A stretch of DNA of 64,000 bases from a virus. The translations under genes and the position numbers were made by a program. The notes under the pieces were generated by a model. It was given only the letters and a program-made list of their open reading frames with translations, searched no databases and was not told the DNA's origin. The stretch lies in IMG/VR virus record IMGVR_UViG_3300045988_131126, one strand, 5' to 3'. Shown in pieces: positions 15,448 through 63,200 of the stretch (position 1 is the stretch's first letter; every line of letters starts with the position of its first letter).

Positions 15448-16992
15448 TTAGTTACTTTTACTCATTTTCTGTAACTGCACTAATTCATCTGCAGTATATA
15501 ATTTTCTTCCTAACGATACAAATGTATTAGTATTAATTATGACATCTCGCTGATGATTCAACCTATTATCAAACGATCCATCATTCCTACTAATATACAT
15601 ACTCTTCGCAGGATTAAATACTCTATTTGCTGCACGATAAAATTCATCATTTATAATATACCAAATATTCAATGTATCACCGTCAAAGTCAGCACCCAAT
15701 GATACAAGGACACCGAGAGGTAATTCCATAGTATAGGAATATGTTATACCTACACAATACATCTGTAATATAGATCCATAGTTAATGGTTGGGTTTCTAT
15801 TAATAATAATAGGAATACCTTTCCCGCTCTTATGTTTCTTGATCATACTTTCAATGATTCTTACGATTAATGGATCTGTATTTATCTTTGCTGCATACCA
15901 TCTATTGTATGCATCCTGAGAAGATAAATTATATGATTTCTTAAGAATATTGATAATGGAAGCATGTAATAATTCCACTAAAGAATTATAGCTAAGTAAT
16001 ACTTGATCGTTTCTTAATTTCGGATTAGATACAATTACACATCTACCTGTAAAGTTATATCTACCAGCAAATAAAGATCTAATTGTACCTTTCTTACCTT
16101 CACAAATTGTAACGATATTATCATATAATTTCATGAATTCTACTTGAATATCGTATAATAATTGTGCTGTAGGTTTAATCTTCTTATTAGAATTAAACTT
16201 AGATTTGGCAAAGTTTAATTCAGATACTAACTTATTAATCTTAGTATAAATAGCATTAGATTCTTCAAAATAGAATGATTCTTTATCTTCATTGAATGGT
16301 CTAAGCATTGTACTGAATACAGGAATAGATTGAGTAAATACTTTATCTCTATTCTCCATAATATTCTTATAATACTCGATTTTATTTGGAAATTTTGCTT
16401 TATAATAATCCATAATCTCATCAAACCTATTATGGAATTCTACCATACCAATTCCATAGAATGGTTGATCTTCGTTCTCGATTATATGGATATGTCCATC
16501 TTCATCAATCTGAGCATCATATTTGATAATACTATCTAATTCTGTTTTACCTATTAAGAATTCAATAGATTTAAATAGATTACAATGTATAACAAAAAAA
16601 TCGTCAGATTGGATTACTATCCAACCTGTGTATCTGGGATTTGTTTCTACATTCTCTACTTTCTGTCCGCAGAATTTACATTTTAATCCAAGATTAATCT
16701 TGGATCTTGTCATTCCACATTTACATCTAAATGTATTCTGGAATTGATCTTGATCAGAAAGATTGTTTCCATATTTAGATGAAAATATAGAATGATCATC
16801 TTTAAGATCTTTTTTGATTCCATTTGTGGGAGATACAATAAATCCGTTACCAGATCTAATGTCTTGCACTCTCTCTTCGTCGAAATTGATTCTTTCCAAT
16901 TCCGTTGTGAATATCCAGTCTGGATTATGCGGATATGAATAAGTAAAATCCAATCCAACCCTTCCATCTGGAAGTTTCTTTAGACATTTCAT
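15448..16992 (-). CDS. phage multisubunit RNA polymerase, beta-prime N-terminal fragment (zinc ribbon to catalytic DFDGD)
   Basis: CKCG...CKFCG zinc motif, NRNPT, and GADFDGDTLNIW, which corresponds to the NADFDGD Mg-binding loop. Has its own SD AAAGGAG. Confidence 0.85.
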   Translation of the reverse strand: MKCLKKLPDGRVGLDFTYSYPHNPDWIFTTELERINFDEERVQDIRSGNGFIVSPTNGIKKDLKDDHSIFSSKYGNNLSDQDQFQNTFRCKCGMTRSKINLGLKCKFCGQKVENVETNPRYTGWIVIQSDDFFVIHCNLFKSIEFLIGKTELDSIIKYDAQIDEDGHIHIIENEDQPFYGIGMVEFHNRFDEIMDYYKAKFPNKIEYYKNIMENRDKVFTQSIPVFSTMLRPFNEDKESFYFEESNAIYTKINKLVSELNFAKSKFNSNKKIKPTAQLLYDIQVEFMKLYDNIVTICEGKKGTIRSLFAGRYNFTGRCVIVSNPKLRNDQVLLSYNSLVELLHASIINILKKSYNLSSQDAYNRWYAAKINTDPLIVRIIESMIKKHKSGKGIPIIINRNPTINYGSILQMYCVGITYSYTMELPLGVLVSLGADFDGDTLNIWYIINDEFYRAANRVFNPAKSMYISRNDGSFDNRLNHQRDVIINTNTFVSLGRKLYTADELVQLQKMSKSN

Positions 16993-17102: not shown

Positions 17103-17693
17103 CTAATGCATGTCTACATTATTTTTCTCTTTCCATACTTCAGCTCTTAATTTATTTACTATTTTCATTATATATCTTTCTTTAAAGAATCTTTTATTTA
17201 TTTCTTTAATATATCCAGATTCTTTTAATAAATAAATAATCTGAGTATTGGAAATATAATGTTTAATACAATATCTTATATACTTTTCTAAAGCATCTTG
17301 TTTAGCATTTCTAAAAGTAAGTAAAGCGTTAGTTTCATCAGAGTTAGCCCACATTAAATTTTCTGGTCTGAAATTGCTGTAATCTCTATCCTTGATATAT
17401 ACTTGATTTCTCTCAAAAAACTTATCTGATCCATTTCTAGGAATATATGTAGTAGCAACTAATCTTGAAATCTTATATTCTTTTTCTATCGCGTATTTAT
17501 CGTAATATACAATACCATCTATCATATTATATTTACAAACTTTTAGTTTTACGACTTTACCTTTATCAGAGTTGTACGATTTTAAAGGAGTATTACTTCC
17601 TTTCATATATACAACCCCATTAACCGTTATAGAATATGATTCAGCCAACGTATATTTGTCTGAATCTAAAACTAAAGGCATTTTTTGCATCAT
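17103..17693 (-). CDS. HNH_3/NUMOD-like homing-endonuclease-like protein, apparently lacking the first catalytic His
   Basis: ISRLVATTYIPRN...VYIKDRDYSNFRPENLMWAN aligns by eye to (VH)RLVAxxF...VxHxDGxxxNNxxxNLEW. The position of the first His is Ile. SD GGGAGGA lies inside the upstream gene's end. Confidence 0.5.
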   Translation of the reverse strand: MMQKMPLVLDSDKYTLAESYSITVNGVVYMKGSNTPLKSYNSDKGKVVKLKVCKYNMIDGIVYYDKYAIEKEYKISRLVATTYIPRNGSDKFFERNQVYIKDRDYSNFRPENLMWANSDETNALLTFRNAKQDALEKYIRYCIKHYISNTQIIYLLKESGYIKEINKRFFKERYIMKIVNKLRAEVWKEKNNVDMH

Positions 17694-17695
17694 AA

Positions 17696-18940
17696 TTATT
17701 TATCCTCCCATTCTCCGAATACTGTATCAAGTGGTATTTCAGTTAACTGCTCTGTGGAATCGTGGAAAGACTTCATTGATATATTTTTCAAAGTAGAAGG
17801 AATTTTAGATTCTGTTATACCAGCATTCTTTATACCTATTCTGTATAACATATTACCTGCACACTTATTACATATACCTGTCTTAGATTCACACATAGAA
17901 GCAAATCTGAACTTGACAACTTTATTTAAATAGTTATCTACATTTTCAGATGTCAATTCTACAAGCTTGCCTTTATCGACTATATAAGAATACATCCAAA
18001 ATGATACATTCTTTTTGGTTAAATGAACTTCTACTGTATCTTTTGTATGACAATCTGATCCAGGAGCATCTAACGTGACATGCTGTAGTGTATATACAAA
18101 TAACTTTTCCCAATAACCACCATCGGCAGTTTTTCTTGCTCGTTTAAATGGACCAGCAGCTAATGAGTTAGCTATCAATGAATATTCATCTGCTTTGATT
18201 CCGTCTATATAGTTGGATGTAGCAAATTTGTATTTCTGTTTAGCATAAGGATCAGGATCTTTAATAACTCCTTTTACAACGAATATATTCTTAAAGTTAT
18301 TACCTACAGATCCTCTAGCACCAGAATTATATACATCCATAGACGGATCGTCTCCCATATAATCTAATGCATACTGTAATAATTCCTTCTCGACTTTATT
18401 ACCTACAACTTCATCCCCTCTGTCTAATGCTTCTTTATTTTTTGCTAAAAGTTCTTCTTTCTTTTTCTTAATAGCATCACTACAAGTAAGCATTTTATCA
18501 GTATAATTAGGAGCAAGTATAGTTACATAAGGCATTATCTTTTGTGTCTTATTTAAATAATGCTTTAAATAATCAAGCTGTATTTTATCTTCCAATAAAG
18601 CATAAGATAATTTCTTATTAATATCTCCAAATAAATCATCATCTACAGACTTATTTATATAATGAAATAAATCGAATAATTCATTTTCAAAAAAGAATTT
18701 ATTATATATAAATAAACCTACTGTAGTAGTAAATGAATTTTTGTTTTTCTTTTGCGGATTTGGACCGTAAGAATTTGCAGGAATAGTGACTATATCATAC
18801 GGATTATATTTTCTTTTTCCATCAAATTCTCCAAAAGTCTCCATTATAAAAGATAGAGTTATATCTTCTTCTTTTAAATCAACCAGGGCTTTTATTTCAT
18901 CTGGATTAGTGATCATTTTTGATTTACGTTTACTAGCCAT
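17696..18940 (-). CDS. phage multisubunit RNA polymerase, beta-prime middle fragment (region F bridge helix to first half of trigger loop)
   Basis: NSGARGS; EYSLIANSLAAGPFKRARKTADGGYWEKL resembles the bridge helix ([22 protein letters not shown]); CNKCAG and MKSFHDS resemble MRTFHTGG. Confidence 0.8.
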   Translation of the reverse strand: MASKRKSKMITNPDEIKALVDLKEEDITLSFIMETFGEFDGKRKYNPYDIVTIPANSYGPNPQKKNKNSFTTTVGLFIYNKFFFENELFDLFHYINKSVDDDLFGDINKKLSYALLEDKIQLDYLKHYLNKTQKIMPYVTILAPNYTDKMLTCSDAIKKKKEELLAKNKEALDRGDEVVGNKVEKELLQYALDYMGDDPSMDVYNSGARGSVGNNFKNIFVVKGVIKDPDPYAKQKYKFATSNYIDGIKADEYSLIANSLAAGPFKRARKTADGGYWEKLFVYTLQHVTLDAPGSDCHTKDTVEVHLTKKNVSFWMYSYIVDKGKLVELTSENVDNYLNKVVKFRFASMCESKTGICNKCAGNMLYRIGIKNAGITESKIPSTLKNISMKSFHDSTEQLTEIPLDTVFGEWEDK

Positions 18941-19077
18941 ATAATTATTTCCTTTCTTATAATACTAGTCTTAGATTACAGTATTGTTGAACTTAGGAAG
19001 AATTATAGAAAAAATAAAAAATAAATTAATCAGGCTTAGCCTGGACCCCTAGCTAATGCTAGAGGTCTTGGTTCTTC

Positions 19078-23244: not shown

Positions 23245-23323
23245 TATATTAAACCTCCATTTATTCGTGTCTACAATTATAATTATGTTTCAGGCTATAA
23301 ATTCCTAGTATCGTAGAAAAAAT

Positions 23324-31084: not shown

Positions 31085-31810
31085 ATGGACGAAAATAAAG
31101 TAAATGAAATACCTGATATATATTTTGAATTTGACGAAACGCAAAACCCTATAGTATCTTCTCCTAATAGTGAATTTTCTATACAGTTTGAACAAACCAA
31201 AGAATCTTTGCTAGAGATAGATACTTATAAGAATTTTATATCAAATGCTGTTGCTCAGTTTAGGCATTCTAGATTCTATAAGCAATATAAATCATATTTA
31301 ATAGATCTAGGTCTAAATAGATGTCAATACTTTCCTAATATTACAGTAGATTTATTAGGAGCTAATGGTATAGAAATGCATCATAATTTTTTAACTATTT
31401 ATGATATAGCGCTTATGATATGTGAGCATGTATTAAATACAGAAGGCCATATTACTACATTTAAATTAATTCATCTATTGAAAGAAGAGCATTCTGAAAA
31501 TAGAATACCCATAGTAATGCTTTCTAAAACAGTACATCAAATGTATCATAATAATGAAGAATTTGTTATACCTGCAAGTCAATGCTTTGGATTCTGGATG
31601 GAGTTATTATATAAGTATAGAAATGGTATTACTATCAATATAGCAAATAAAGTAATAAATTTCTTACAAGCTAGTCTAGAAGAAATAAAAGGTATAAATA
31701 GTTCTTCTAATTATGCTAATACTCTGTTACAATTAAGAGATCATGTATACAATTGGTCTATATATAATGAATATCTAGATAGAGCTAAAATAGGACAAAT
31801 AGTATATTAA
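31085..31810 (+). CDS. hypothetical protein with HH...TVHxxxH motif, paralog of 44549..45397
   Basis: FYKQYKSYL...IEMHHNFLTIYD...LSKTVHQMYHN...FVIP aligns by eye with EYRQLVNYL...IHIHHCPFTLYE...LAETVHDLVHK...LFIP. Confidence 0.7.
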   Translation: MDENKVNEIPDIYFEFDETQNPIVSSPNSEFSIQFEQTKESLLEIDTYKNFISNAVAQFRHSRFYKQYKSYLIDLGLNRCQYFPNITVDLLGANGIEMHHNFLTIYDIALMICEHVLNTEGHITTFKLIHLLKEEHSENRIPIVMLSKTVHQMYHNNEEFVIPASQCFGFWMELLYKYRNGITINIANKVINFLQASLEEIKGINSSSNYANTLLQLRDHVYNWSIYNEYLDRAKIGQIVY

Positions 31811-33011: not shown

Positions 33012-33084
33012 TATTAATATTATGCAACATACAGGAAAATCAAAACACATTTCTATAAAGTATAATATAAAAGGAGATTAAAAG

Positions 33085-37214: not shown

Positions 37215-37530
37215 TTTTATTAGCTCCCCCAGTTATTTTACAATAATATTTTAATGTTTTTCCTTTGCGTTTTCTAATGTACCTAAAACTGTAGTTTCCA
37301 TAAATGCAATTTGTTTTTAAAGCCCCAATATTCTTTGATTGAAATTCTAATCTGTGATTTCTATAGATAAAATGATAAGGTACATACATAACGCAATGGA
37401 AAAATTTCAAAGATATTAATGAAATTATACTTTCGTCCACGTCCATATTATTTACTATCTCATATAGAGTTAATTCCGGCCAATCTAATTCTTTTAAAGA
37501 TTGTACATTTGATTTTAAAAATTCTTTCAT
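37198..37530 (-). CDS. small basic hypothetical protein (110 aa, MKEF...)
   Basis: ATG 37530 with SD GAGGTGG. TAATG overlap. Confidence 0.55.
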   Translation of the reverse strand: MKEFLKSNVQSLKELDWPELTLYEIVNNMDVDESIISLISLKFFHCVMYVPYHFIYRNHRLEFQSKNIGALKTNCIYGNYSFRYIRKRKGKTLKYYCKITGGANKNVRII

Positions 37531-42328: not shown

Positions 42329-43216
42329 TTATTCTGCAACTGGGATATTCTTTATTTGATCGTGATGTTTGTAATCAATAAGTTTGATATCCGATTCAGT
42401 GAAATCGTAAAATGATGGTTCTTCTTTGTTGCAACTTAATTCATATTTTGGAGCTTCGTAAGGCTCTCTAATGATCATCTCTTTAATCATGTCTATATGC
42501 CTATCATAAATATGACAATCACCAATTTGATGAATTAATTTTCCTGGTGTATATCCTGTAGCTTTAGCAATAAAAATAAGCAGAGCTGCATACTGACATA
42601 CATTCCAGTTATTTGCGGTTAAGAAATCTTGAGATCTTTGCGTAAGCATCATATCAAGATACTTAGTCCCGCTTTTATCTGTTCTTACATTCCATTGCGT
42701 TAAAAATGCGCATGGCTCTAATCCCATTTTAGAAAGATCATCTATATTATAAATGTCTGTAATAATTCTTCTAGAGGTGGGATTATGTATTAATTCATTA
42801 ATGATATAGTCTGTCTGGTCAAGTTCTAAAATTTCTCCAGTACAACTTCCATCACTATGCAAGCATTCTACGCTTACTGGTCTGAATCTATGTCCAATTT
42901 GATATCCATAAGCTAATCCGATCTTTCCATCAGATGTAGCCCATTGATCCCAAATATGGGAATTTAATTCTTTAATGTCATTGGATTTCTTCTGGAAAAT
43001 CCATAAAATTTCATCTACACAAGCTTTAAGATTAATAGGTCTTAAAGTCAATGCAGGAAACTCTCCTTTAGATAAATCGTATACTGTGTGTACATCAAAT
43101 ACTTTTAATGTTTTTGCTGGAGTTCCATCTGGCCATATAGCTCTTACCGGAACTTCTTCACCTTCATCTAAAATTCTTTTTGCAGTTTCGATAAACTTCT
43201 GATCTGCATAACTCAT
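42329..43216 (-). CDS. thyA: thymidylate synthase, B. subtilis ThyA / phage ThyP3-like subtype
   Basis: ILWIFQKKSNDIKEL..IWDQWA..GLAYGYQ, SRRIITDIYN, EPCAFLTQWNV (catalytic Cys), QRSQDFLTANNWNVCQYAAL (Asn retained), GDCHIYDRHI. True start is ATG 43216 (MSYADQKF...) with SD AAAGGAGAG. Confidence 0.9.
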   Translation of the reverse strand: MSYADQKFIETAKRILDEGEEVPVRAIWPDGTPAKTLKVFDVHTVYDLSKGEFPALTLRPINLKACVDEILWIFQKKSNDIKELNSHIWDQWATSDGKIGLAYGYQIGHRFRPVSVECLHSDGSCTGEILELDQTDYIINELIHNPTSRRIITDIYNIDDLSKMGLEPCAFLTQWNVRTDKSGTKYLDMMLTQRSQDFLTANNWNVCQYAALLIFIAKATGYTPGKLIHQIGDCHIYDRHIDMIKEMIIREPYEAPKYELSCNKEEPSFYDFTESDIKLIDYKHHDQIKNIPVAE

Positions 43217-43268
43217 AGTTTGTTCTCTCCTTTTTATATGTAATTTTATAAGAAAGTTGCCCAAGATA

Positions 43269-43976
43269 TCAAAAATGATATCTTGGGTCAATTAACTTTT
43301 TATATTTATTGATTTCTTCTATAGTGAAATTAGATAATTTTTCTATAGGTCTTAATAAAATAGGAATGTTTTCTGAATACTGTAAAGATTCTCTTGTACT
43401 ATTATCTACATAATCATTGCACTCCAGCATCTTTATCATCGTTTCTTTATCTATTTTTCCTATACCTACAGTTCCATTATGTTGATCAAATTTGGACATA
43501 GCCTTTTCTACTTCGCTATCTTTATTAAAATTTATATGTCCTTTAATATGGAAGAAAGATACATCAATATTATATGTAATAATCATATTCATGATACTAG
43601 TTATAATATTCTGATTTGCTACCTTTTCTCCAGATGAATTTAATAGATATCCTTTATCATCTAAAGTCCATCCATCAAACCATTCTCTTAACCCTTTGAC
43701 AGATATAAGCGAATCACTAAATATATTAATATATTTTGGCTGTTCAGACATTAATCGTCTTGCGTCAAAAGCCAGTTGTACAGCCATTTGTATGGCATAA
43801 ATTTCGCCGAAATTATTAGTAGTATTTCTATTGATTTGTATTTGTTCGGCAAGTTTCTGATCTCCAATCATAGCAACAAATCCAGAAGCTGAATCAAATC
43901 CATAATTCATATTTCTGACTGATGCATCTGTGAAGATATTTAATGTTGTTGGTTTAAAATTGATTCTTTCATTCAT
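43269..43976 (-). CDS. rnhA: ribonuclease HI with C-terminal extension
   Basis: IFTDAS, TNNFGEIYAIQMAVQLA, INIFSDSLISVKGLREWFDGW, HIKGH...ECNDYVD match the E. coli RNase HI D10/E48/D70/H124/D134 blocks. Confidence 0.85.
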   Translation of the reverse strand: MNERINFKPTTLNIFTDASVRNMNYGFDSASGFVAMIGDQKLAEQIQINRNTTNNFGEIYAIQMAVQLAFDARRLMSEQPKYINIFSDSLISVKGLREWFDGWTLDDKGYLLNSSGEKVANQNIITSIMNMIITYNIDVSFFHIKGHINFNKDSEVEKAMSKFDQHNGTVGIGKIDKETMIKMLECNDYVDNSTRESLQYSENIPILLRPIEKLSNFTIEEINKYKKLIDPRYHF

Positions 43977-44548: not shown

Positions 44549-45397
44549 CTATACAGATGTGTACAAATCCGAATAATCATGATAAATAGGCATAATCATA
44601 TTACCATCTTTAGAATAATCATGATATATCGGATTTATCATAATTACATTATTATCGTAAGTATTAGTTCCAATAGCTTTCTGTTCTGGCGCACCTTTAA
44701 TCTCTTTTATTCTATTAAACATAGAATCTATCAAAGCTTCCATATTCTCTGCATTTGGAATTATGTACGATCCTTCTTCTGGTTTCAGTTCTATATAAAC
44801 AGGTTTTCTTTCTAAAATAGACATATTATACGATTGATTATATAATTCTGTCTGTTTTCTCATAGCTTCCAATTTAGTCTTGCTCTCTTCTGGTATAAAT
44901 TGAGAGTAATTTTGTTCAAATAATTGATAGTTTCCCATTACATTATCTAATGGTATAAATAATACTTGCTTATGTACTAAATCGTGTACAGTCTCTGCTA
45001 GCGGTATTAAACCAACCATTAAGAAGTAATGCAGATACATTACTTCGTGAGCTACAAGTTCTATATTTAAAGGTTCTCTCATGTACATACGTTTATTAAA
45101 TACTGTAATAAAATATTCGTATAATGTAAATGGACAATGATGAATATGTATTTTTATCTTAAAAGATTCCTCATTAGATACATTTTGAAATATACTGCAC
45201 TTATTCATATCCATATAATCTCTTAGATAGTTGACAAGTTGTCTGTATTCAAATGACCCTCTTATGAGTTTTTCTCCATCAGCTACATATTTAGCAAAAT
45301 CTTTTTTATCAAATAAATCATATTCTTCTTCACAGAATGGTGGTATGTTATCCATTACAAGTATACTTTTATCTTCGTATACTGTTAAATCGTTCAT
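44549..45397 (-). CDS. hypothetical protein with HH...TVHxxxH motif, paralog of 31085..31810
   Basis: ATG 45397 with SD GAGGTG. The C-terminus carries a PIYHDYS x2 repeat. Confidence 0.7.
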   Translation of the reverse strand: MNDLTVYEDKSILVMDNIPPFCEEEYDLFDKKDFAKYVADGEKLIRGSFEYRQLVNYLRDYMDMNKCSIFQNVSNEESFKIKIHIHHCPFTLYEYFITVFNKRMYMREPLNIELVAHEVMYLHYFLMVGLIPLAETVHDLVHKQVLFIPLDNVMGNYQLFEQNYSQFIPEESKTKLEAMRKQTELYNQSYNMSILERKPVYIELKPEEGSYIIPNAENMEALIDSMFNRIKEIKGAPEQKAIGTNTYDNNVIMINPIYHDYSKDGNMIMPIYHDYSDLYTSV

Positions 45398-45470
45398 GTT
45401 TATCACCTCTTATTATTTTACCTAATTGTATACTATATTAATAATAAAAGAAAAGGAGGAAGTTGTAATT

Positions 45471-48276: not shown

Positions 48277-48753
48277 ATGGCTAAGAATTTTCAGAAAAAA
48301 GAAACTACTAGAAGAAAACCAGATCCTAAAATCTTCAGAAAGCATTTCGCTAAATTTGAAGAAGCTATCGAGGGATTAAGAGAAGCAGATGCAGCTATTG
48401 CTGACATCTTTGCTAAAGATGTAGATGGTAAAGCTATATCAGAACCAATTGATTCTCCAAAAGATGCAATTCAGTACGTTTTAAATGATTTCGCCAATTA
48501 TGCACCAGATCTTCTTGGTAATGAGAATATCTACTGCTCTTTAAACACATCATCCAATAAGCTTACATACAGAATTAATAAAGAAGTTGGATTCGGTTGG
48601 GTTATTTCATACTCTATCGAAAACAAACATGCTGTTATTAATGACGTATCTGTACAGATTATTGTATATGATGAGTCTGAGCAGGGAACAAAGAATCTCA
48701 TGCTTGATCTTACTGCAGCAGGATGGGATCAGATTAAAATTAAAACTAAATAA
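48277..48753 (+). CDS. hypothetical protein (158 aa), probably abundant
   Basis: SD AGAGGAGA. Visibly GC-richer, biased codons compared with its neighbours. Strong terminator. Confidence 0.75.
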   Translation: MAKNFQKKETTRRKPDPKIFRKHFAKFEEAIEGLREADAAIADIFAKDVDGKAISEPIDSPKDAIQYVLNDFANYAPDLLGNENIYCSLNTSSNKLTYRINKEVGFGWVISYSIENKHAVINDVSVQIIVYDESEQGTKNLMLDLTAAGWDQIKIKTK

Positions 48754-48759
48754 ATGCTT

Positions 48760-48792
48760 ATACCCCTATAACCAATACGGTTATAGGGGTAT
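48760..48792. terminator. bidirectional terminator between 48277..48753 and the beta-like gene
   Basis: ATACCCCTATAACC / GGTTATAGGGGTAT stem, then TTATTTTTT. Confidence 0.75.
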
Positions 48793-48799: not shown

Positions 48800-51700
48800 T
48801 TATTCTATTTTATAAGGTATATCTAATATATCTTTACAAGATCTAGTAAGTTCTACTAATAACTTATTAAGACTACCTACTTTGATTACCGATGTAACCA
48901 TACGTGCATTGATGCCTCCTAATGATACTAATGAATCCATCTTTTCATTTTTTCTGAAATCTGAATATGGTTCATCTCCTTTAGGGAAGATATCTTTTAC
49001 TACACCTTTTACAGCAGAATAATATATAAGTTTATCACCTACAGACATCTTATCGTTATATTTAATATTTATTTCTATATATAATCCATCTACTTTCTTT
49101 AATTTACCTTGATTATCAAGTTTATCTGTAGATTCTACATCGGAAGTATCAATACCATACTTCTTCATAATAGATTTCTGTTTATTGATATTTCCTTCGT
49201 ATTTATTCCATAATTTTAATAATGTATCAGACAATTCAGATTTTTCACAAGTACGTTTTATTACAATAGATTGTATTGTACCGGTTACTTCTGCTTTGAT
49301 ATTAGTTCTACCTAATTCACTTATCATATCACTTTCATCATCTGATAAGTTTCTTAATATCTGGTCTACATATTCATCGTCAGAAGCCATCTGTAAAGTA
49401 AACAGAGTGTCGCCTTCTTTTACAGCTTGTCTTTCTTTTACCATATTATATATATTAGCATCTTTAGGAACTGATTTAGTTACCTGTAATATTACTTCTG
49501 ATGCCATATCTTCTGATAACTTTTGAGATATAATAGCACTATCTTCATATCCTTCATCTGTATTTAATAAAGCTACTTTACAGAAAGTACCTATATTATA
49601 TTCTATATTATCAGTAGTACCAGTTTTATTAGAATAAGCTAAAGGGTCATATGCTAAGATATCATTTTTACCAAACTTATCCCCAACTTTTAACTTACTA
49701 TCTAATTGAATACCAATATAGAAACCATTACTGGAGTTCTTTTCTGCTTTATCTTTAAAGGATATAAAATCATGAGTACCGTTATCGTATTCTACGACCA
49801 TATAATCATTAGTTTTTTCTATTACTTTGCCTTTATCTTTGGATTTAAAAGAGAAAGTATTAGAAGTCAAATATGGTAAAGCTTCATCTGCTCCTGTTGT
49901 TACTAATAATGGATCGCTCTTAGCACATCTCATACCATGTTTAGATGTCTGAATAAAGTTCATAGCACTACGCATAGGGTCATCACCTGTGGTACCAAAA
50001 GGAGTCAAAGCTTCTGTCATACATAAAGTTTTAATAGGATTTAATTCTTTTTCTTTGCCATCATCATTTGAAAGTATTCTACCGTATGCATCTACATTAG
50101 CATCTATAGTAGCCTGACGTACAATACCTACATTACCAGCAAAACCTGTTGACAAAGATAAAGTACCAAACATTGAATCATCATATGAACGTTTATCAAG
50201 ACCATAAGATCTATCACTATTCATACCAGAATGACCTTTAGGAGTTACAGCAGAATATGATTCATATTCTTGAAGAGGATTAATTACAGATAAATCACTA
50301 GAAGTATTTAACTTCATGAATTCATCTATAACTGCTGATTGTTTTAAACTAAATCCTTTATTTCTTCCATGTTTAATAGAAGTATTATATCCAGCATATT
50401 CTCTTGCTAATACTGCGTATAATAAGTCTACTATCTGTTGTTTACGTTTTAATTGCCTTGTATTAGCAATATTAGTATGCTTTACATATTTATTATCAGC
50501 TAATAATTGATTAGCGTATAATAATACTGATACATAGTCTGTTGGTAACTTATAAGATACTAATTGCTGATAGGTATTATTATCAATCATCAAATCATAA
50601 AAGTTATCAAGACCATCGGCTATAATTCTACCGCCAAATAGATCTAAGAAAGCTAAATAAGTAGTACGTTTATTCATATCAGAAATAGATACTTCTGATA
50701 TAGGGCAATCTCTCAATCCATTTAATAATAATGAAGAATCATATGTAACTTCGAAAGATAAATATCCATCTTTAAATCTAATACTATCCCAGTTATAAGG
50801 TAAATCTTTTGGTTTTTCTTCACTGAGATCATATTTAATATTTGCTTTCTTTAATACTACGTCTAATCCTTCGTGATAAGCACATAAAACTATTAAAGGT
50901 ATCTTTTGTGACATTATACTAGCTCTAGAATACGTATATTTGGTAGCTTTAGAAGCTTTAACAAAGTCAGAATAAAAAGTTGTACCTTCCATTTGGGTTG
51001 ATATTAATGAAGCTAAATAATCGCTGAAAATACCATTTTTAGAAGTATAATATTCTACTTTTTTATTTTTTGTATCATAAGCAAAAGGTACTCCTTTTGA
51101 ATCATCTACATTATATTTCTTTCTAATTTCATCTTGGTTAAAATAGAAAGTATAATTCTTAGTAACTATTTTACTATATACACTAGATAAATCTATATAG
51201 TCGACAGGTAATTCATATTTACTACAAACCCTAGCATTCATACCTGTATATACTTTTAAATTAGGATATTCTTTTTTATTTAAAACTTTCATGAGTTTAC
51301 CAGAAGATATAATACTCTTACCAGCAGCAGAGCCAAATCGTCTTATGAAAATCTTGTTATAATTAGATACAATCTGTACTGTATCTTCGTCAGTTTTGAT
51401 AATAGGCATCAAGAATAACTGGTTAGGCAATTCTTTTCTATTACCTCTTAATTTAATATATTTACCATCTATAAATTTAGGTATATCAAGTTTAACAGTA
51501 AATCTTTCTCCTCTTCCAGATTCGTATTTAACTTCATAAGTTTCTACAGCATCCTCAGAAGTAGAAGTATCTGTGACTGATATATCTCTAATATATAATG
51601 GATTAGATAATTTAGACAATGATTCAAAAGTACGTACAATATCATCATCCATATTATATGAATTATCTATATTAGGAAAAGTTAAATTCTCCCATTCAGG

Positions 51701-53674
51701 ATTAACACTATCTACTTTAAGATCAATAGGTTCTATTTTCTTATTCTGTTGCTCTATAGGTAAAGGTTTTCCTTCATCTAAGATATCTTTAATTGATTTA
51801 CCTTTAATCTCTTTAGATAATAAATCATTTTGCAATTTAAGATTTCTATTAGCCCTAGCAGCTGTAACTACTGGCTGTCCTTCATCTGGATTATCGTTTA
51901 AGAAATCCAGAATATCTTTAACCTCGTCATCATCTAACTTATCTAAAGCTATATCTGTATCGCTACTATTTTTAGCAGCCTTATCTATTTTATCTACTAA
52001 TTCTTTTTTCTTTTCTGCTTTCTGTACAGCAGCTTTACTTGTAGAAGCAGGTTTAATTTCTTCTTTGTCTAAAGAATCAATTTTAACACCCTGAGTTATT
52101 TCTACTTTATTTATAATATTATCTTTAATAACCTTTGGAGAATCTTGTACGTCTTCAGGTTCTTCTGGTATAATAGTATTTTCATCTATAAGCATTTTAA
52201 TTAATCTGATATAAGAAGCTTTTAATTTTTTATAGTCTACTTTAGCAAAATTAATTGTAAAGTATCCTTTATTAGATAAAAATACGAATGTATTATCACC
52301 ATATTTCTTCAAAGAATCTATATCAGACATTAATCTTTTATAGATTACAGATATAGGATTTATAGTATCTTGAATCATCCATAATCTTCCGCTACTAATA
52401 GCATTCCAATCGTCTAATGGTATAGTTATAGTTTTATTAGCATATCCTGCATCGTTTATTTCTTTATCCATAATTAATCTATCCATTAATCTGGAATAAA
52501 TATTATAGCCTCTAAGATTTTTAAATGTACTATTTTTAAGATAAGTTTCATTATACCAATAAGTATCAAAAAACAGATTCAAATTTTTATATTTAGAAAT
52601 ATCATGATAAGTATATTTGATAGTAGGATTATCGGTTTTTACTTTATCATATATAGCTTGCATATCTTTTCTTGTTTTAATACGATCTTTATAAAGCATT
52701 TTCTTTAGTATTGAATCTTGAGCATCTTCTAAAAGAACGTAATCATTTTCTGTTAAAGGTAAAAGATCGTATAATTTAGAATAGTAATTTTCTTCAATTG
52801 GTTTATCAAATACTGAATAATTAGTAACGTTTTCATATAAACGATCTATATTAAAATAATCTAATACGTTATTTATAGTATCATTTACTGGTAGATATAA
52901 AGAAAATAATTTTACTAATTCTTTGGTATTATTATTCTTTAGCACTACGTCTTTATAAAATACTCTTCTATTACGCTCCATGTATGATACTATACATGGA
53001 CACAATGTTTTTAAATTTTTAGCAAAAGGCCAAATCCCTTTTTTAGAATAATAATCATATAAACCGCTTTCTACTAAAGCAGTCCCATATAATAAAGACT
53101 TATTTATTGATGAATTAGCTCTATTGATCAAATAAACCATAAGAGTAAATTTGACATAAGTTTCATAATCTACAAATAAATCTCTATTAAAAGTATACCT
53201 AGATTCTAAATACAGTACCGTTGTAGTTGGTTCTCTTAAATATCCTCTTCTGTATACTTCTACGTTTATAGTTTCAGGGAATTCTATGCCGTTAGGTAGT
53301 CCTTTTTGGATACTCGATAAATAATCTCCTGTTATTACACTTTCTACTTCTTTTATATCTGATTCTAATCCGTTAAATACAAAATTAGTTTTTGGACTAT
53401 CGAATAATTTTTCATAATCCTCTAATATAGACACTGATTCTTCTACAGGTTCTTCTTTTGTCCCATCTATGTAATACATTACTGGTCTTCTCATAAAATA
53501 AGAATAATAATATCTATATCCAAGAAATTCGTTATTCATTATAGATTTAGAAGACTCGTAACTCGGGGCCAATAATATAGCTACAGAACCTTTCTTTCTA
53601 TCTTTGTCGCTGATAGGCATTAAAGCTTTTTTACGTTTGATCATTAAATTAGGAATTTCGTCTATGAAATACAT
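48800..53674 (-). CDS. phage multisubunit RNA polymerase beta-like subunit (1624 aa) with large non-homologous N-terminal extension
   Basis: IPKFIDGKYIKLRGNRKELPNQLF (aa 731-754) resembles IPLMTxxGTFIINGxERVIVSQL. NPLQEYESYSAVTPKGHSGMN...GNVGIV resembles NPLSE..RRxSALGPGGL...PNIGLI. DDPMRSAMNFIQTSKH resembles DDANRALMGANMQRQA. EGYEDSAIISQK resembles GYNFEDSILxSE. GDKLIYYSAVKGVV...SLGGINARM resembles GDKxAGRHGNKGVxS...NPLGVPSRMN. Confidence 0.85.
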   Translation of the reverse strand: MYFIDEIPNLMIKRKKALMPISDKDRKKGSVAILLAPSYESSKSIMNNEFLGYRYYYSYFMRRPVMYYIDGTKEEPVEESVSILEDYEKLFDSPKTNFVFNGLESDIKEVESVITGDYLSSIQKGLPNGIEFPETINVEVYRRGYLREPTTTVLYLESRYTFNRDLFVDYETYVKFTLMVYLINRANSSINKSLLYGTALVESGLYDYYSKKGIWPFAKNLKTLCPCIVSYMERNRRVFYKDVVLKNNNTKELVKLFSLYLPVNDTINNVLDYFNIDRLYENVTNYSVFDKPIEENYYSKLYDLLPLTENDYVLLEDAQDSILKKMLYKDRIKTRKDMQAIYDKVKTDNPTIKYTYHDISKYKNLNLFFDTYWYNETYLKNSTFKNLRGYNIYSRLMDRLIMDKEINDAGYANKTITIPLDDWNAISSGRLWMIQDTINPISVIYKRLMSDIDSLKKYGDNTFVFLSNKGYFTINFAKVDYKKLKASYIRLIKMLIDENTIIPEEPEDVQDSPKVIKDNIINKVEITQGVKIDSLDKEEIKPASTSKAAVQKAEKKKELVDKIDKAAKNSSDTDIALDKLDDDEVKDILDFLNDNPDEGQPVVTAARANRNLKLQNDLLSKEIKGKSIKDILDEGKPLPIEQQNKKIEPIDLKVDSVNPEWENLTFPNIDNSYNMDDDIVRTFESLSKLSNPLYIRDISVTDTSTSEDAVETYEVKYESGRGERFTVKLDIPKFIDGKYIKLRGNRKELPNQLFLMPIIKTDEDTVQIVSNYNKIFIRRFGSAAGKSIISSGKLMKVLNKKEYPNLKVYTGMNARVCSKYELPVDYIDLSSVYSKIVTKNYTFYFNQDEIRKKYNVDDSKGVPFAYDTKNKKVEYYTSKNGIFSDYLASLISTQMEGTTFYSDFVKASKATKYTYSRASIMSQKIPLIVLCAYHEGLDVVLKKANIKYDLSEEKPKDLPYNWDSIRFKDGYLSFEVTYDSSLLLNGLRDCPISEVSISDMNKRTTYLAFLDLFGGRIIADGLDNFYDLMIDNNTYQQLVSYKLPTDYVSVLLYANQLLADNKYVKHTNIANTRQLKRKQQIVDLLYAVLAREYAGYNTSIKHGRNKGFSLKQSAVIDEFMKLNTSSDLSVINPLQEYESYSAVTPKGHSGMNSDRSYGLDKRSYDDSMFGTLSLSTGFAGNVGIVRQATIDANVDAYGRILSNDDGKEKELNPIKTLCMTEALTPFGTTGDDPMRSAMNFIQTSKHGMRCAKSDPLLVTTGADEALPYLTSNTFSFKSKDKGKVIEKTNDYMVVEYDNGTHDFISFKDKAEKNSSNGFYIGIQLDSKLKVGDKFGKNDILAYDPLAYSNKTGTTDNIEYNIGTFCKVALLNTDEGYEDSAIISQKLSEDMASEVILQVTKSVPKDANIYNMVKERQAVKEGDTLFTLQMASDDEYVDQILRNLSDDESDMISELGRTNIKAEVTGTIQSIVIKRTCEKSELSDTLLKLWNKYEGNINKQKSIMKKYGIDTSDVESTDKLDNQGKLKKVDGLYIEINIKYNDKMSVGDKLIYYSAVKGVVKDIFPKGDEPYSDFRKNEKMDSLVSLGGINARMVTSVIKVGSLNKLLVELTRSCKDILDIPYKIE

Positions 53675-53741
53675 TTTAGAAATCCTCCTTTCAATATTAC
53701 TATTCTGTTTAAAATATCAAATTTGGCAGAATTAGAGATAT

Positions 53742-57184: not shown

Positions 57185-57200
57185 CATTTATGTAAATATT
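57185..57200 (+). promoter_or_regulatory. CATTTATGTAAATATT motif upstream of the tape-measure-like gene
   Basis: Located 4 nt before SD TAGGAGG, just after the terminator at 57136..57167. Confidence 0.4.
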
Positions 57201-57219
57201 GAATAGGAGGTACTTAATT

Positions 57220-60200
57220 ATGCCTAATCCTGTCAAATGGATAACAAATGTTGGTAAATCTATATCATATTCATTTATAGACGAAATGAAAGAATTAAAC
57301 CCAGCTTTGGCTTCCTTTAAAGAAGATAACGGAGATTTTGCAAAATCTGTAAAAAGTACGATATCTATAAAAAGCATAAAAGATGCTTCAAAGAATTTAT
57401 CTAGTAATGAATATTTTAGTATAGCGAAAGATACTATAAATAATCTAAAAAGTGATATTAAAACAGGTAATCTGTATAATAGAGAAAGAGAGAAGAAGGC
57501 TGAAGATCAATTCGCTTCTAAAATGATGGGATTTGATGATTCAGATTTCGGATTTGATGATAGCGGAGACATGAATTTTAATTTTGATGAAGATGTAACT
57601 GATTCTATAGATCAATCTACTAAATCAACTAATGATATGGTAGATTTAGTAGGTAAGAAAACATCTTTAGCTATATCTAATGCTGTTGTTGGATCTTCCG
57701 AATATATGGCTAAATCATCAAGAAAAAATACAAAAATATTGTTCGATCAGAACAATATTTTATTTAGCAAGTTACATTCTGATTTAGGTACAGTTAATCA
57801 GAATATAGGATCTATATTAGAGTTTAATAAAGAAGCTACTACGACTCATTATAATAACTCTGCTGCATATTATTCGAATATGACTTCTAAAATGGAAGAA
57901 ACCACTTCCATGCTGAAAGAAATGCTTGAAATGCAAAAAGAGTATTATGGAAAGAAGAACGATTTTAATGGAATTTATGGATCAAATGAAAGAAGTTATT
58001 CTGGAATATCGAATAAAGGAGTAATAAATTTAGAAGCATTTTTTAAGAATATAAAAGGTAATGTAAAAGATAAGTTATCTATGCTTGATATGCTTGGAAG
58101 TATGGTTACTGATACAGGAATGGGAGGTATGTTATCTGCATCCCCTGGTAAGTATTTAACGCAAGGACTAGTTAAAATGCTTACACCTAAAATGCTCAAA
58201 GAATCTATGAAAGATTTTAACGAGACATTATCTGGTGTATTAGCAAATGCTATATTAAAAATAAATGATGAAGCCGGAGATTTTAGCTTTAAGCAGATAT
58301 TGGCTAGTTTGTTTAAAACAAATGAATCTCTTAAAACAGAGATAAATCCATCAGGATATAAGAAAGATGCTATACCTTTCGATGGAGTAACAAAGAAAGC
58401 TATTACAGAGGTTATACCTACATATTTGGCAAAAATATTATCTGCTGTGTCTAATCAATCAGAAACTAGATACGACTACGAAAAAGGTAGATTTGTATCT
58501 ATGGATGAAATAAAGAGAGAGTATCAAAATATAGTAAAAAATAATTCTAAAATGGCATCATGGAATATGAGTAATTCTATGATGGATTTAGCTAATAATA
58601 CTATTAAATTTGATAAAGATGATAAAGGCAATTTTATTTCTAAGAAGCAATTCCAAAAAGATTTGGAAGCTTTCTTCGAATATCAATATAAAAATGCTAA
58701 AGTATTTAATGGTAGAAAAGAAAATATAGATCCTGCTACATACGGAATGAAAGGTGGACAGAAATCCGAAATTAGTGCTAAACTAATTAAACAGATGTGG
58801 AATGCTCTGCCTAATAAAGAACGTATGAAATTAGCTGGGGAAATATTAGATCAGAGACAAATGCAAAATACTACCATGAGAGACATAGAAAGTAATTCGA
58901 ATAGTAGTATAATTAATTTGTTTAATGGCTCTGGAGCTACTAAAACTGGTAGTGCTTTTAAATCTAAAAAAACATCATCTGATAGTCCTTATGCCAACTC
59001 TAGTAAATATTCTGGAGCTATCATCGATATACTTGGTGATATACGTAAAGAAGTATCTTATATTAGAGCTTATGGTATTGGCGAAAAGAATGGATTTGGT
59101 GGTAAGTCTAAAGGAAAACACAGTAAGAAGAAATCTAGAACTACGAATAATTATAATAGAACTGTAAGTTTCGAAAATTATAATCCTTATGATGATATTA
59201 ATATAAATGATTTTGATGAAGATGAAAATTATAGTTCTATGGATTTATCATTTATGAATGAGAATCTTGTAGGACCAGATGGTAAAGTGTTACCTCCTCT
59301 TGAAAAGAAAGATAATGAAACACAAGAAGAATTTGATCAAAGAGTCAGAGAACGATTCGAACAGATCAAATCTGGTAAAAAGAAAAACAAAGGTATATTC
59401 GGGAAGATAGCAGATGCTACTTCTGGAAATAAACTTGTAAAATCTATTGCCGGTGGTATAGACAAAATATTAGAAAAACCAGCACAATTTCTCACTACAG
59501 TAATACGTAAAGCAGATGAAACCGTATTTGATTTAGTATTTGGTAAAGCTGGTGATAAAGAGAACAAAGGTATCCTATATGAAATGAAAGTTGGTATTAG
59601 AAAAACTTTCACTAATATGGGAGACTGGTTACAGAAAAATGTATTAGATCCTATAAAAGAAAAATTTACAGCAAAAAATATTAAAGAGATGGGTCGCAAA
59701 TTTTTTGGTCTCTTTGGTATTGATATAGATAAGACTGTAAAAAGTGTAAGAGAAAAATTATTTGGTGTAAAAGGAGAAGACGGTAAGCGCCAAGACGGGA
59801 AAAAGGGCATCTTTGGACAGTTTATAGACGATACTAAAGACTCTTTTAAGAAAGCCTTTGGGTGGTTTAAAGGAACTTTTAAAGAAGCAGCTGAATGGGC
59901 AGGATTTAAAGGTACTTTAAACGAAAAAGGTAAAACCAAACAGAAGAAAAAAGATATAGCTCAAGACGTGATGCGTCGAGCTATGAATAACGAAGATAAA
60001 AGAGCTGCTCAGAGAGTACATGAAAAAAATAAAGAGAAAAAAGAAGAAGACAAAAGAAGAAGAACCGGAGAAGAAATATTAGGCCAAGCTGCAGCTGGAT
60101 TAAGGCGAGTACCTAAAACAGGTGTATATGCTTTATCAGAGGGCGAAGCCGTTATTCCTCCAGATCATGATCCTGCTAAAATAAAAAGAAGATATGCTAA

Positions 60201-63200
60201 TGAAGCTAGAGCTATAGATAGATATAAAAAGCATGGCGGAATTAGTATGTTTGCTGAAGGAACAGAAGGACCTTCAGAAGACGATAAGGATACTAATAAA
60301 AAAGACAAAAAATCTAATTATGATCGTGCAAAAGAAATATACGATAGTATTAAATTTGAATACGATGACTACGAAGAAGGACAAGCTCCATTAGGAATGG
60401 AGATAATGAAACAACTATCCAATCTTCTTAAACTTGGTAAAGCTTTTGCTGGAGATGTATCTGACAAAGTTATGTCTCAAAAAGATGCAGACAATAAAGT
60501 CAAAGAAGATGTAAGCAATATATTCTGTAAAGTAATGAATCTTGCTCCAGAAGTAAAGAACGCTTTACCTAATATGACTGTTGGTGCCGTAATAGGTTCT
60601 GGCGTATCATTAATTAGTGGTATGATAGGAGGTCCTTTATTAGGGGCTGCTGTTGGTGCCGCTAGTGGATTAGTAATAAAAAGTAAAACTGTACAGGATT
60701 TATTGTTCGGAAGTACAGATAAAGATGGAAATTATAAAGCTGGATTGATTCCTAAAAATGTATCTGATACTATAAAGAAATATGTACCGACTATGGCTAA
60801 AGGATCTACTTTAGGTATGATCACTTCTCTCATACCATTTGTTCCTGGTGGTCCTATGGCTGGTATCTTATTAGGATCAGCTGCAGGCGTTGTAGCAAAA
60901 AATGAGAAAATATATAATGCATTATTTGGTGAAGATTCTATATTACCTGATTTTCCTAATAGGATTAAGAAAGCGTTGCCAAAAATGGGAGCAGGAGCCG
61001 CTGTAGGCTTAGTTGCCGGACCATTTGGTGTTGCTACAAATATCTTATTAGGATCAGCGGTAGGATTTGCCGCAGATAGTGATAAATTCAAAAATGTATT
61101 CTTTGGAGAAAAAGATAAGTATGGTAAAAGAGTTGGTGGTATTTATAATACAATAGTAGATACTATATCAGCTCCTATAAAAGATATGACTCAGAAATTC
61201 GGAGATTGGTTCAATGAAACAATCAAACGAAATCTGAACGATTTCTTTACGCCTTTAAAGAATTCTGCATTACATGCTGTGGATACAATAAAAGATTTCT
61301 TTAAAGATAAAATTAATGATAAAATAGTAAGACCTATAGAAGAAAGATTAAAATCATTATTAAAACCATTTGCTAAATTATTTGGATTTGCTTTTAATAC
61401 TGGGAAAAATATATTAAAAACTGGTATAGGATTACCGTTTAATATGCTTGGTGGTATTGGACGTCGTATGACAAGACATCAAGTCAAAAATGGTAGAGCC
61501 TATGATATGACAGCAGCTGAAAGGAATGAATATAGACGTACTCATAAGCTTGGTATTATAGGAAGGGATAAAGCATCTCGAATGGACCAAACTCTGGAAC
61601 AGATGGGATCAGAGGACCTTCAATCAGCTAAAGATGCTATAGAGTTCCTTAGAACTGGCGATAGAGATAATAAGAAAGTAATAAATGAAAATACAAAAAA
61701 GATACAGAATAGTATTAATGCTAATATAGGTAAATTACCTGCTAAACAGCAAAAAGATATTATTAAGTATCTTAATAAAGGTAAATATAAACAAGCTATA
61801 GGATACTTAGATAAAATAAATATATCTGATCCTAGCGCTAAATCTGCTTTGATTAAAGATATAGAAGCCTCTGGTAAAGAAATAGCAAAAGCCAGATATG
61901 CTATGAATTACAATAAAAATGGTGAATATAGAACTAAAGCAGAAGATAAATTAAAATCTTTAGGGTTTGATACTAATTCATTAAATCTTAGAGATATGAG
62001 TAGATTACTTGACACTGAGTTAGCAGATAGAAATAATTCTGATGCTTATGAAGAATCTAAGAAATCTGAGAATTTTCAGAATGATATATTGAAAGATATT
62101 CAAGAGATTATTCTTCAGATGAAGATGCTTAATAAGGGATTACTTGGATCTGATATTGATGTAGAAAGTATCACCACTAAAAATTTAGATAAAAAGATAA
62201 AGAAAGCTCAAGATAAAGCTGAAAAGAGAAACGAACAGCAAGAGCATATAGATAGAGGAGAAGCTCGCACTAAATTTGGTAGAGCTAGGCAAAAAATCTT
62301 TGGTGGTATAAAAGGAGCTGTTGGTCATACATTTAATAGATTAGGTGGATGGGTATTTGCTGACAATACTACTGAAGATGGAAATGTTGTAGATAGAGCT
62401 GCTTATAAAGGAGTAAAAGCTGCTGAAACTCTCGGCAGAGGTGTAATTAATTCTCCTAGAAGAGCTAAAAGAGCTGTTGCTAAATGGGCAGGAAGAAAAT
62501 TAAATAAATTTAAAGGTAGAAATGATCGACTTAGAAGATTTATGGATGAATACTTCGACGATCATGATGTAGATGGACAAGCTGCTGAGGGATTATATGG
62601 AGTTCCATATAGCGGATTATATGCTTTATCTGAGGGTGAATATGTAATACCTAGTTTAGCAGAAGGAACCGAACTACCTACCAATAGAAAAAATAATACC
62701 ATAGTCTTACGAATAATGATGGTTGGTGACAAATTACGAGCATCATTAGGAATGGGCAAAGGGAAAAAAATTAGAAGAAATAAAAATAAGGACGAAAATA
62801 GTTATCAGGGAGATAATAATGAAAAGACTACAACAAGTTTTTATAATGGTCTTCCTATTAAAAATAAAGTAGATGCTAATGGTAATGTAGAGCCTGATAC
62901 GTCTGATGCTGAAACAGTAAATACTCTTAGAGAAAGAGATGAAGATAGAGCCAATCAAAAAGGTATATTTGATACCATTAAAGGTATTCCTTCTAAGATT
63001 GGTGAAATTTTTGGTATCGGTAAAAAGAAAGATAAAAAGAAAGATAATCTTTTAGGAAAGATATTAAAAGCTGCTGGAATTGCAATGCTTGCAGCATTCT
63101 TTGCACCTAAGATTATAAACTTTATTAAGAAAACTGTAGCTCCATTTATAGAAGATACAGTTGTTCCTGTATTTAAAGAAAAGATTCTTCCTGCAATAGA

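Follow-up and report, generated by a model that had tools for sequence, protein, structure and literature searches.

A virion RNA polymerase βN subunit with a long non-β N-terminus and a variable domain slot in an uncultured jumbo phage

The minus strand of the IMG/VR virus record IMGVR_UViG_3300045988_131126 encodes a 1624-amino-acid (aa) protein that resembles the β subunit of RNA polymerase (RNAP) over only part of its length. What kind of subunit is this, is it a whole β, and what might its long N-terminal region do? The stretch analysed, here called the window, is 64,000 nucleotides (nt) long and has a GC content of 27–30%. An earlier note, made from the sequence alone, had read the gene as an unsplit β-like subunit with a fused N-terminal extension and a degenerate GRHGNKG site. 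We find that the protein is the βN subunit of a virion-packaged multisubunit RNA polymerase (vRNAP) from an uncultured low-GC jumbo phage related to AR9 and PBS1. The gene is a new, somewhat enlarged and otherwise ordinary addition to a known family of subunits, set apart only by an additional domain that occupies a variable N-terminal slot; in relatives this slot holds enzymes. The gene, its core and the motifs discussed below are located as follows.

48800..53674, minus strand: vRNAP βN gene, a single uninterrupted open reading frame (ORF) with an ATG start, 1624 aa plus the stop codon.
48803..51724, minus strand: β-like catalytic core (lobes, flap/sandwich-barrel hybrid motif, double-psi β-barrel (DPBB)), aa 651–1624, ending shortly after the DPBB lysine.
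51413..51484, minus strand: IPKFIDGKYIKLRGNRKELPNQLF, the first block recognisable against bacterial β, aa 731–754 (IPKF...NQLF).
49541..49546, minus strand: E1377-D1378 in the NTDEGYEDSAIIS block (GYEDS), aligned to the bacterial GYNFEDA motif.
49004..49039, minus strand: GDKLIYYSAVKG, counterpart of the bacterial GDKxxGRHGNKG, aa 1546–1557.

Profile searches against PHROGs place the protein in phrog_3148, 'RNA polymerase beta subunit' (E 1.5e-126; query 515–1618 against profile positions 328–1421 of 1424), with a second match to phrog_14872 (E 2.2e-113). Pfam gave only a sub-threshold Rpb2_6 match and a spurious winged helix-turn-helix match. A tblastn search of 50,697 phage records returned matches in 299 jumbo-phage records. 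The best relatives are Staphylococcus phages SA1, S6, DC4 and MarsHill, Listeria phage LPJP1, Bacillus phages AR9 and PBS1, Yersinia phage phiR1-37 and the Fusobacterium JD-Fnp phages, all at 27–33% identity over query positions ~650–1617; phiKZ-, SPN3US- and RSF1-type phages rank next, at ~22–24%. BLASTP E values are 9e-131 for SA1, 6e-86 for phiR1-37 and 7e-79 for Fnp1. The annotated orthologs, which include AR9 g189, phiR1-37 g099 and Staphylococcus phage DC4_00067, are single genes of 1393–1484 aa. AR9 g189 is annotated as 'beta subunit, N-terminus; virion RNAP subunit' and phiR1-37 g099 as 'phage structural protein', and purified virions were found to contain DC4_00067 (PMC10638138). By orthology to phiR1-37 g099, AR9 g189, Moabite and DC4_00067, the 1624-aa βN would also be located in the virion.

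The full-length gene recurs in other assemblies. A 99%-identical protein is encoded on a 276,775-bp metagenomic contig, and 19 further clusters, all from metagenome assemblies, span the entire length at 44–74% identity. In all, at least 20 full-length orthologs from independent assemblies, 44–99% identical, share the same single frame. These orthologs exclude the possibility, raised in the earlier note, that an error at the charged linker between the N-terminal region and the core had joined two genes. The idea of such an artefact draws on the unusual composition of the linker, and we regard its probability as negligible: one frame runs through the linker in every one of these orthologs, the linker contains conserved motifs, and the same continuous gene is present in known phages. 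That this is one 1624-aa ORF is also confirmed by its ATG, its ribosome-binding site and the hairpin, a likely terminator, that follows it (see below).

An AlphaFold2 (AF2) model of aa 500–1624, built on a 22-sequence alignment, has a predicted local distance difference test score (pLDDT) of 80.1 and a predicted template modelling score (pTM) of 0.74. A Foldseek search of the core model against the PDB gave 442 matches at E<=1e-3 (best E 2.9e-27), the best 50 of which are all bacterial RNAP β chains, and a profile search of the core against the PDB matched bacterial β at E 2e-4. Within IPKFIDGKYIKLRGNRKELPNQLF, residues P732, L742, G744, N745 and K747 are invariant in the clade. The positions that had been given for this block and for the YYSAVKG sequence at the GRHGNKG site (aa 1551–1557) both hold. 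Likewise, the description of a β-like subunit with a large non-β N-terminus is borne out by the phrog_3148 match, the match to the bacterial β fold and the lack of any β-lobe match in aa 1–660. The late start of β homology is borne out by BLAST, in which similarity to other phage β-like subunits begins at aa ~650; the PHROG β profile aligns from aa 515, within the charged linker. From the family matches, the virion orthologs and the core model, we therefore assign the protein as a β-like vRNAP subunit of a jumbo phage related to AR9 and PBS1.

Could such a subunit be catalytically competent? The GDKLIYYSAVKG block keeps D1547, K1548 and K1556 and has lost RHGN, and its GDK...K portion (aa 1546–1556) aligns to Thermus β 836–846 of 1119. 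D1547, K1548, K1556, E1377 and D1378 are invariant in 22 divergent sequences, distant relatives included. Two lysines were singled out for the β DPBB by Iyer et al. (PMC7824862), and both (K1548 and K1556) are present here. The counterpart of GRHGNKG reads FYGACKT in SA1, FFTSLKT in phiR1-37, YFNALKG in Fnp1 and YYTALKT in LPJP1, and WGNQMKC or VSHQLKT in distant relatives. In the sequences compared, the degenerate site is thus a trait of the whole vRNAP βN family, with invariant catalytic residues, and does not set this gene apart as had been thought. The loss of R, H, G and N might point to a catalytically dead, purely structural paralog. We consider this very unlikely: GDK, K1556 and ED are unchanged across the 22 divergent sequences, and the same degeneracy occurs in AR9-, phiR1-37- and SPN3US/phiKZ-type relatives, which have essential vRNAP subunits and whose vRNAP is credited with early transcription that depends on neither host RNAP nor newly made protein. 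A polymerase with this βN would be expected to be active.

The C-terminal end of the chain shows whether β is whole. Only 68 residues follow K1556, vs ~260 in bacterial β, and in a 39-sequence alignment all 39 relatives end 60–79 aa past the lysine, distant phiKZ-like ones included. Alignment to bacterial β stops near residue 861 of the 1119 in Thermus β and near residue 920 of the 1178 in 8dy7_C, leaving at least 200 aa of the bacterial C-terminus, among them the universally conserved GGQRFGEME region, with no counterpart in βN. In a vRNAP, β is made up of a large βN plus a small βC (PMC7598289); the SPN3US pair is gp241 (159 kDa) and gp218 (25 kDa), both essential (PMC5694885). With a core that comes to an end just past the DPBB, the polymerase must be completed by a βC from another gene and by β′ fragments; two β′ fragment genes lie in the window. 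As judged from these alignments, the 1624-aa protein is an ordinary βN piece, and β is still split. The premise that phage β is usually split was correct, and this gene is one of the pieces; the label 'unsplit' fails on the position of the chain end, which all 39 relatives share, and on the annotation of the AR9 ortholog as βN.

We searched the window for βC with a scan for GEME-type motifs, which found none, with PHROG scans of 43 ORFs, which gave no RNAP match except two β′ fragments (βN aside), and with phmmer using an approximate E. coli β C-terminus, which gave no match. The best weak candidate, ORF 30106–31044, obtained no βC support from a PDB search. The 'RNA polymerase' genes that lie beside βN in SA1 and Fnp1 were considered as βC and proved to be β′ fragments, and a βC of the AR9 vRNAP did not turn up within the first 50 kb of AR9's annotation. 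The window is less than one-quarter of a genome of ~277 kb, so the lack of a βC gene within it is unsurprising. This lack is what would speak for a truly unsplit β, in which the 1624-aa chain is a complete compact equivalent and no βC exists. Such a β is highly improbable given how short the chain is past K1556, the missing GGQRFGEME region, the orthologs that are annotated and genetically shown as βN with a separate essential βC, and the share of the genome that the window covers.

How unusual is the N-terminal region? The IPKF block is preceded by 476–577 aa in relatives, 700–740 aa in this clade and 731 aa in this βN, compared with ~118 aa in bacterial β. A 'unique N-terminal region' of these subunits was already remarked by Iyer et al. 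(PMC7824862). Across the sequences, the long non-β N-terminus is a family-wide trait and no one-off fused domain. An extension peculiar to this gene can thus be dismissed, since every relative has one; of the proposed extra fused domain, what survives is a clade-specific domain of ~190 aa (domain V) inserted in the long N-terminus that the family shares. The region aa 1–650 follows a fixed plan of block A, a variable slot, block B and a charged helical linker, after which the β core begins.

53396..53674, minus strand: block A, conserved N-terminal module, aa 1–93; structured over aa 1–65, with a low-confidence tail at aa 66–93 that contains I-L-E85.
52826..53395, minus strand: slot domain V, clade-specific α/β domain, aa 94–283; pLDDT ~70–89, without a Pfam match.
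52727..52825, minus strand: low-confidence segment ending in L-L-E316, a candidate protease site at the border of slot and block B, aa 284–316.
52160..52726, minus strand: block B, conserved α/β domain, aa 317–505, common to the N-termini of AR9/PBS1/SA1/phiR1-37-type βN.
51725..52159, minus strand: charged helical linker, aa 506–650, with motifs DSPKxIK..IxDKVE, KxELVxK, LDDDE, ARxxRNLKL and KGKSIKDIL.

No Pfam or PDB match was found for aa 1–660, in agreement with the earlier remark that the first part holds no recognised motif. An AF2 model of aa 1–660, from a shallow alignment of 11 sequences, has a pLDDT of 74.9 and a pTM of 0.54. Foldseek of this model against the PDB returned nothing significant (best E 0.19) and no β-lobe match from a library with hundreds of β chains; the N-terminus does not consist of ordinary β lobes. 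The same searches bear on a suggestion of the earlier note, that the N-terminus is a fused homolog of the fifth subunit of the non-virion RNAP (nvRNAP), phiKZ gp68 or AR9 gp226. Apart from that suggestion, the partly helical character of the region is all that speaks for it. Both gp68 (7OGP) and gp226 (7S00) are in the PDB, and neither the profile search nor Foldseek of aa 1–660 recovered them, which makes this origin scarcely credible.

The individual blocks can be followed through the family. Block A is modelled with a pLDDT of 84–94 over about aa 1–65. A profile of aa 1–322, run against 1.84 billion cluster representatives, matched 258 proteins at E<=1e-3 and 161 at E<=1e-10; nearly all of the 258 matches cover block A, which in every case lies at the very N-terminal end of the matched protein. 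A few relatives of AR9 size keep block A as well, or have A and B joined directly. For block B, hhalign aligned aa 362–478 to SA1/AR9-type aa 106–219 (probability 97.7%, E 2.5e-12), and Foldseek against BFVD recovered the N-terminal parts of PBS1 A0A223LD65 (E 2.9e-8), phiR1-37 g099 (G4KK38) and two uncultured Myoviridae RNAPs. The linker had been described as K/E/D-rich and of low complexity. Its composition was described correctly (39% K+E+D in aa 505–650 vs 23–25% elsewhere), but it has conserved motifs and predicted helices with a pLDDT of ~70–90 and aligns to phrog_3148 from profile position 328 onward, and it is therefore no low-complexity spacer. From the profile–profile and fold matches, block B and the linker are thus old common parts of vRNAP βN.

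P0035, the only match in a database search with aa 1–660, was considered as a stand-alone N-domain protein and is taken as a chimera or fragment. On its contig (L004; ENA ERZ1767643 NODE_14988, 2616 bp, 2.2x) a βN N-terminal fragment runs into an α/β-hydrolase (Peptidase_S9-like) frame. This contig is most likely a chimeric assembly, with a genuine alternative fusion as the less likely reading.

The slot between blocks A and B accounts for the enlargement of this protein: the extra ~230 aa of the clade are slot content. Domain V is missing or replaced in P0022, P0025, P0165 and other relatives. A zincin-like fold was considered for it and rejected; Foldseek matches to thermolysin, Wss1/SprT and LTA4H-type structures were weak (E>=0.2, or 0.19 at best), and there is no HExxH, the conserved motif being instead ALYESGLY. 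We mapped segment hidden Markov models on 38 representatives of at least 1250 aa, of which 35 are C-terminally complete and 3 are truncated where their contig ends. All 35 complete proteins run A, slot, B, linker, β core, and all 3 truncated ones run A, slot, B, with block B present in 38 of 38. The gap from A to B ranges from 33 aa (P0165, 1414 aa, AR9-type size) to ~1340 aa (P0171, 2785 aa). Relatives with recognisable passengers are 1900–2785 aa long, their NUDIX domains often occur in pairs, and none of them lies in the window. The passengers are as follows.

Relatives P0023, P0074 and P0171: GNAT acetyltransferase in the slot.
Relatives P0130, P0178, P0104 and P0171: NUDIX hydrolase in the slot.
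Relative P0078: DUF362 in the slot.
Relatives P0022, P0024, P0102, P0130, P0171 and P0178: DUF6582 in the slot.

The Nudix box GX5EX7REX2EE is intact in P0171, P0178 and five fragments that bear block A, and the CoA-binding R-x-x-G-x-A is intact in two of the GNATs. An HD-phosphohydrolase fused to the βC of the AR9/PBS1 vRNAP is a precedent for enzymes carried on a vRNAP (PMC7598289).

What, then, is the N-terminal module for? We think it probable that block A, block B and the linker form a packaging and ejection pro-region that doubles as a cargo carrier. The module would bring the polymerase, assembled beforehand, into the prohead, or take it through the tail when it is ejected, or both, behaving like the long N-terminal pro-region of the 201φ2-1 vRNAP β, and the slot would let accessory domains ride along: domain V here, and NUDIX, GNAT, DUF362 or DUF6582 domains in relatives. 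The five vRNAP subunits of phiKZ-like phages come together before they enter the prohead, and in 201φ2-1 the N-terminal 275 residues of βN are removed by the prohead protease at TFE-275; SPN3US keeps its βN N-terminal region (PMC5694885). On the precedent of 201φ2-1 we therefore favour the pro-region. Among the options offered by the earlier note, a capsid-targeting propeptide of a packaged RNAP fits best, given the virion orthologs and that cut in 201φ2-1.

If the module is such a pro-region, [ILVF]-x-E sequences at E85 and E316 are candidate prohead-protease sites, and cuts at both would free the slot domain and leave a mature enzyme of about 1308 aa. Just four glutamates in aa 1–520 are at least 80% conserved in the clade (E6, E85, E202 and E316), and all four have I, L, V or M two residues upstream, at P3. 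Two of these, E85 and E316, fall within the low-confidence segments on either side of the slot; the AF2 pLDDT is below 50 for aa 283–320. Of 43 divergent relatives, 34 have Glu at the E316 position, 33 of these with L, F, I, M or V at P3, and 29 have Glu at the E85 position, 27 of these with I, L or V at P3, counts to be read with the shortness of the motif in mind. A related phage encodes a T4-type prohead protease. Together, these features are suggestive, and only suggestive, of prohead-protease cleavage at E85 and E316.

Several points weigh against a processed, cargo-carrying pro-region. Virion location and processing of this protein are carried over from its orthologs, and the 'cargo' role of domain V would follow by analogy with relatives only. 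The [ILVF]-x-E motif is short in a protein rich in I, L, K and E; E316 may merely cap the helix that follows, and the low pLDDT around it may reflect the shallow alignment of 11 sequences. Neither a prohead protease gene nor βC was found in the 64-kb window. SPN3US retains the region in its mature functional enzyme, and a permanent role in the polymerase is therefore just as possible.

Such a permanent role would make block A, block B and the linker a working part of the mature polymerase, either as a substitute for the missing α platform, as a σ-like early-promoter factor, or both. The vRNAP has no α, ω or σ homologs, and its five known subunits are all β/β′ fragments (PMC7598289, PMC5694885); early-promoter recognition must therefore reside in these five. 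The N-terminus of βN is the largest non-β/β′ part of them (PMC7824862), SPN3US βN functions with the region attached, and in strength of conservation block B and the linker equal parts of the core. However, the region resembles none of σ, α, gp68 and gp226 in fold or sequence, 275 N-terminal residues are removed in 201φ2-1, and a slot open to 33–1340 aa of unrelated enzymes is more in keeping with a carrier than with a precise DNA reader. On balance we consider a permanent part rather unlikely, and retain the pro-region as the preferred explanation.

We tentatively entertain a wider possibility, that in this lineage of AR9-related jumbo phages the βN N-terminus serves as a modular platform for effector delivery. 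Enzymes would have been inserted repeatedly into the slot framed by the conserved ~90-aa block A and by block B, to be packaged with the polymerase, possibly released by the prohead protease at the [ILVF]-x-E sites on either side and injected with the DNA, with domain V as another passenger. If true, the passengers would target host RNA, nucleotides or proteins as soon as infection begins.

Sequence signals around the gene are listed here, together with further copies of the promoter-like motif.

53684..53691, minus strand: ribosome-binding site AAAGGAGG, 9 nt 5′ of the βN ATG, read directly in the sequence.
53698..53709, minus strand: AACAGAATAGTA, match to the AR9 late-promoter consensus, 24 nt 5′ of the βN ATG.
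48763..48789, no strand: GC-rich hairpin CCCCTATAACC / GGTTATAGGGG, a perfect 11-bp inverted repeat with T/A runs on both sides.
18977–18988, 17037–17048, 23278–23289 and 37247–37258, minus strand, and 3987–3998 and 33044–33055, plus strand: AACA-N6-TA copies which, with that at 53698–53709, lie 24–45 nt 5′ of gene starts.

The hairpin begins 10 nt past the βN stop, between the βN gene and a convergent gene at 48277..48753, and is likely a bidirectional terminator. The AR9 late-promoter consensus is AACA-N6-TA/G (PMC5312081), and AACAGAATAGTA, being a short motif, is a weak candidate for an AR9-type late promoter of the βN gene. The relaxed pattern AACA-N6-T[A/T] is depleted across the window (77 copies vs 149±12 expected). 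Eleven copies lie on the coding strand within 80 nt 5′ of gene starts, where ~2 would be expected from the space available, an enrichment of about 5-fold in which the AT-rich composition of intergenic DNA is uncontrolled. Seven of the 11, each with TA at its end, are 24–45 nt from the gene start; among them are those that precede both β′ fragment genes and two genes for virion proteins. This pattern suggests an AR9-like nvRNAP promoter code, and the copy upstream of βN fits late, nvRNAP-driven expression, as would be expected for a virion component.

The two β′ fragment genes found by the PHROG scans lie elsewhere in the window.

15448..16992, minus strand: β′-N fragment gene, 514 aa, with the DFDGD catalytic loop; phrog_2987, AR9 β′-N chain 7S01_d (nvRNAP) at E 3e-32, Pfam Rpb1_2.
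17696..18940, minus strand: β′ middle fragment gene, 414 aa, bridge-helix region; phrog_2962, matching bacterial β′ ~720–910.

The 414-aa fragment is 35% identical to a 408-aa gene that adjoins vRNAP βN in SA1. An HNH endonuclease gene (17103–17693) lies between the two β′ fragment genes. A giant ORF at 57196–63999 (plus strand) runs off the window end; its product has 2268 aa or more (2607 aa or more on a related contig), matches phrog_26249 (unknown function) only weakly, within the first 570 aa, and is probably a component of the virion or tail. Another ORF (4968–9224, plus strand), which starts at TTG and encodes 1418 aa, has no Pfam or PHROG match and directly follows a virion structural protein gene (4030–4971). 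Genes for thymidylate synthase (42329–43291), dihydrofolate reductase (14008–14631) and RNase H (43269–43976) are all on the minus strand; the encoded synthesis of thymidylate (dTMP) suggests that the DNA contains thymine, whereas the related AR9 and PBS1 have uracil genomes. Two phrog_12252 paralogs (unknown function) occur 13 kb apart on opposite strands, at 31085–31810 (plus strand, E 4e-25) and 44549–45406 (minus strand, E 3e-40).

The novelty of this locus is modest and consists of the slot architecture and the enzyme passengers of relatives, of which we met no published description. As of a 2020 review no jumbo-phage vRNAP had been purified or solved (PMC7598289), and we found none since. 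The comparative frame yields testable hypotheses about which part of βN serves packaging and where it is cut. NUDIX and GNAT passengers with intact motifs could point to an undescribed route by which giant phages inject host-takeover enzymes. The comparison also removes a likely annotation trap, in which vRNAP βN genes are called 'unsplit β' or 'inactive' from their degenerate GRHGNKG.

Among known systems, the closest are the phrog_3148/14872 proteins AR9 g189, PBS1 gp78-80, those of SA1 and S6, DC4_00067, the LPJP1 protein, phiR1-37 g099 and JD-Fnp1_95, whose orthologous core was aligned above. They share the C-terminal end point, the degenerate GRHGNKG with its lysine, block B and the charged linker, and are virion-associated where tested. 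At 1393–1484 aa they are shorter than the 1624 aa found here, which carries the extra ~190-aa domain V between A and B. Block A is just marginally detectable in this group (in one AR9-size relative, P0028), and the AR9 and PBS1 genes are broken by introns or HNH genes, whereas this one is uninterrupted.

The phiKZ-like proteins (phiKZ gp178, 201φ2-1 gp273/274, SPN3US gp241) are the same subunit with the same split into a large βN and a small βC. They too have a long non-β N-terminus, that of 201φ2-1 being a propeptide cut at TFE-275 by the prohead protease. However, they are only ~22–24% identical to this βN, their protease motif is S/A/G-x-E rather than [ILVF]-x-E, and the likeness of their N-termini to blocks A and B is not at the level of shown homology.

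More distant systems offer functional parallels. In the vRNAP of coliphage N4, flanking domains serve encapsidation and injection. That enzyme, a single subunit of ~3500 aa, is packed in the capsid and injected, with its catalytic centre flanked by large non-catalytic domains (PMC13492108); it has an unrelated T7-like single-subunit fold with no homology to βN and is an analogy only. Precedents for the delivery of enzymes by fusion to a packaged protein are the βC-HD phosphohydrolase of AR9, PBS1 and BpSp, T4 Alt and the internal proteins with capsid-targeting sequences, and the 'polyvalent' injected proteins; in the T4 internal-protein type the targeting peptides are removed at L/I-x-E by the T4-type prohead protease. 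The system described here differs from these in that the fusion partner is βN, rather than βC as in AR9, PBS1 and BpSp, that the cargo of relatives is NUDIX, GNAT or DUF362, and that cleavage is putative.

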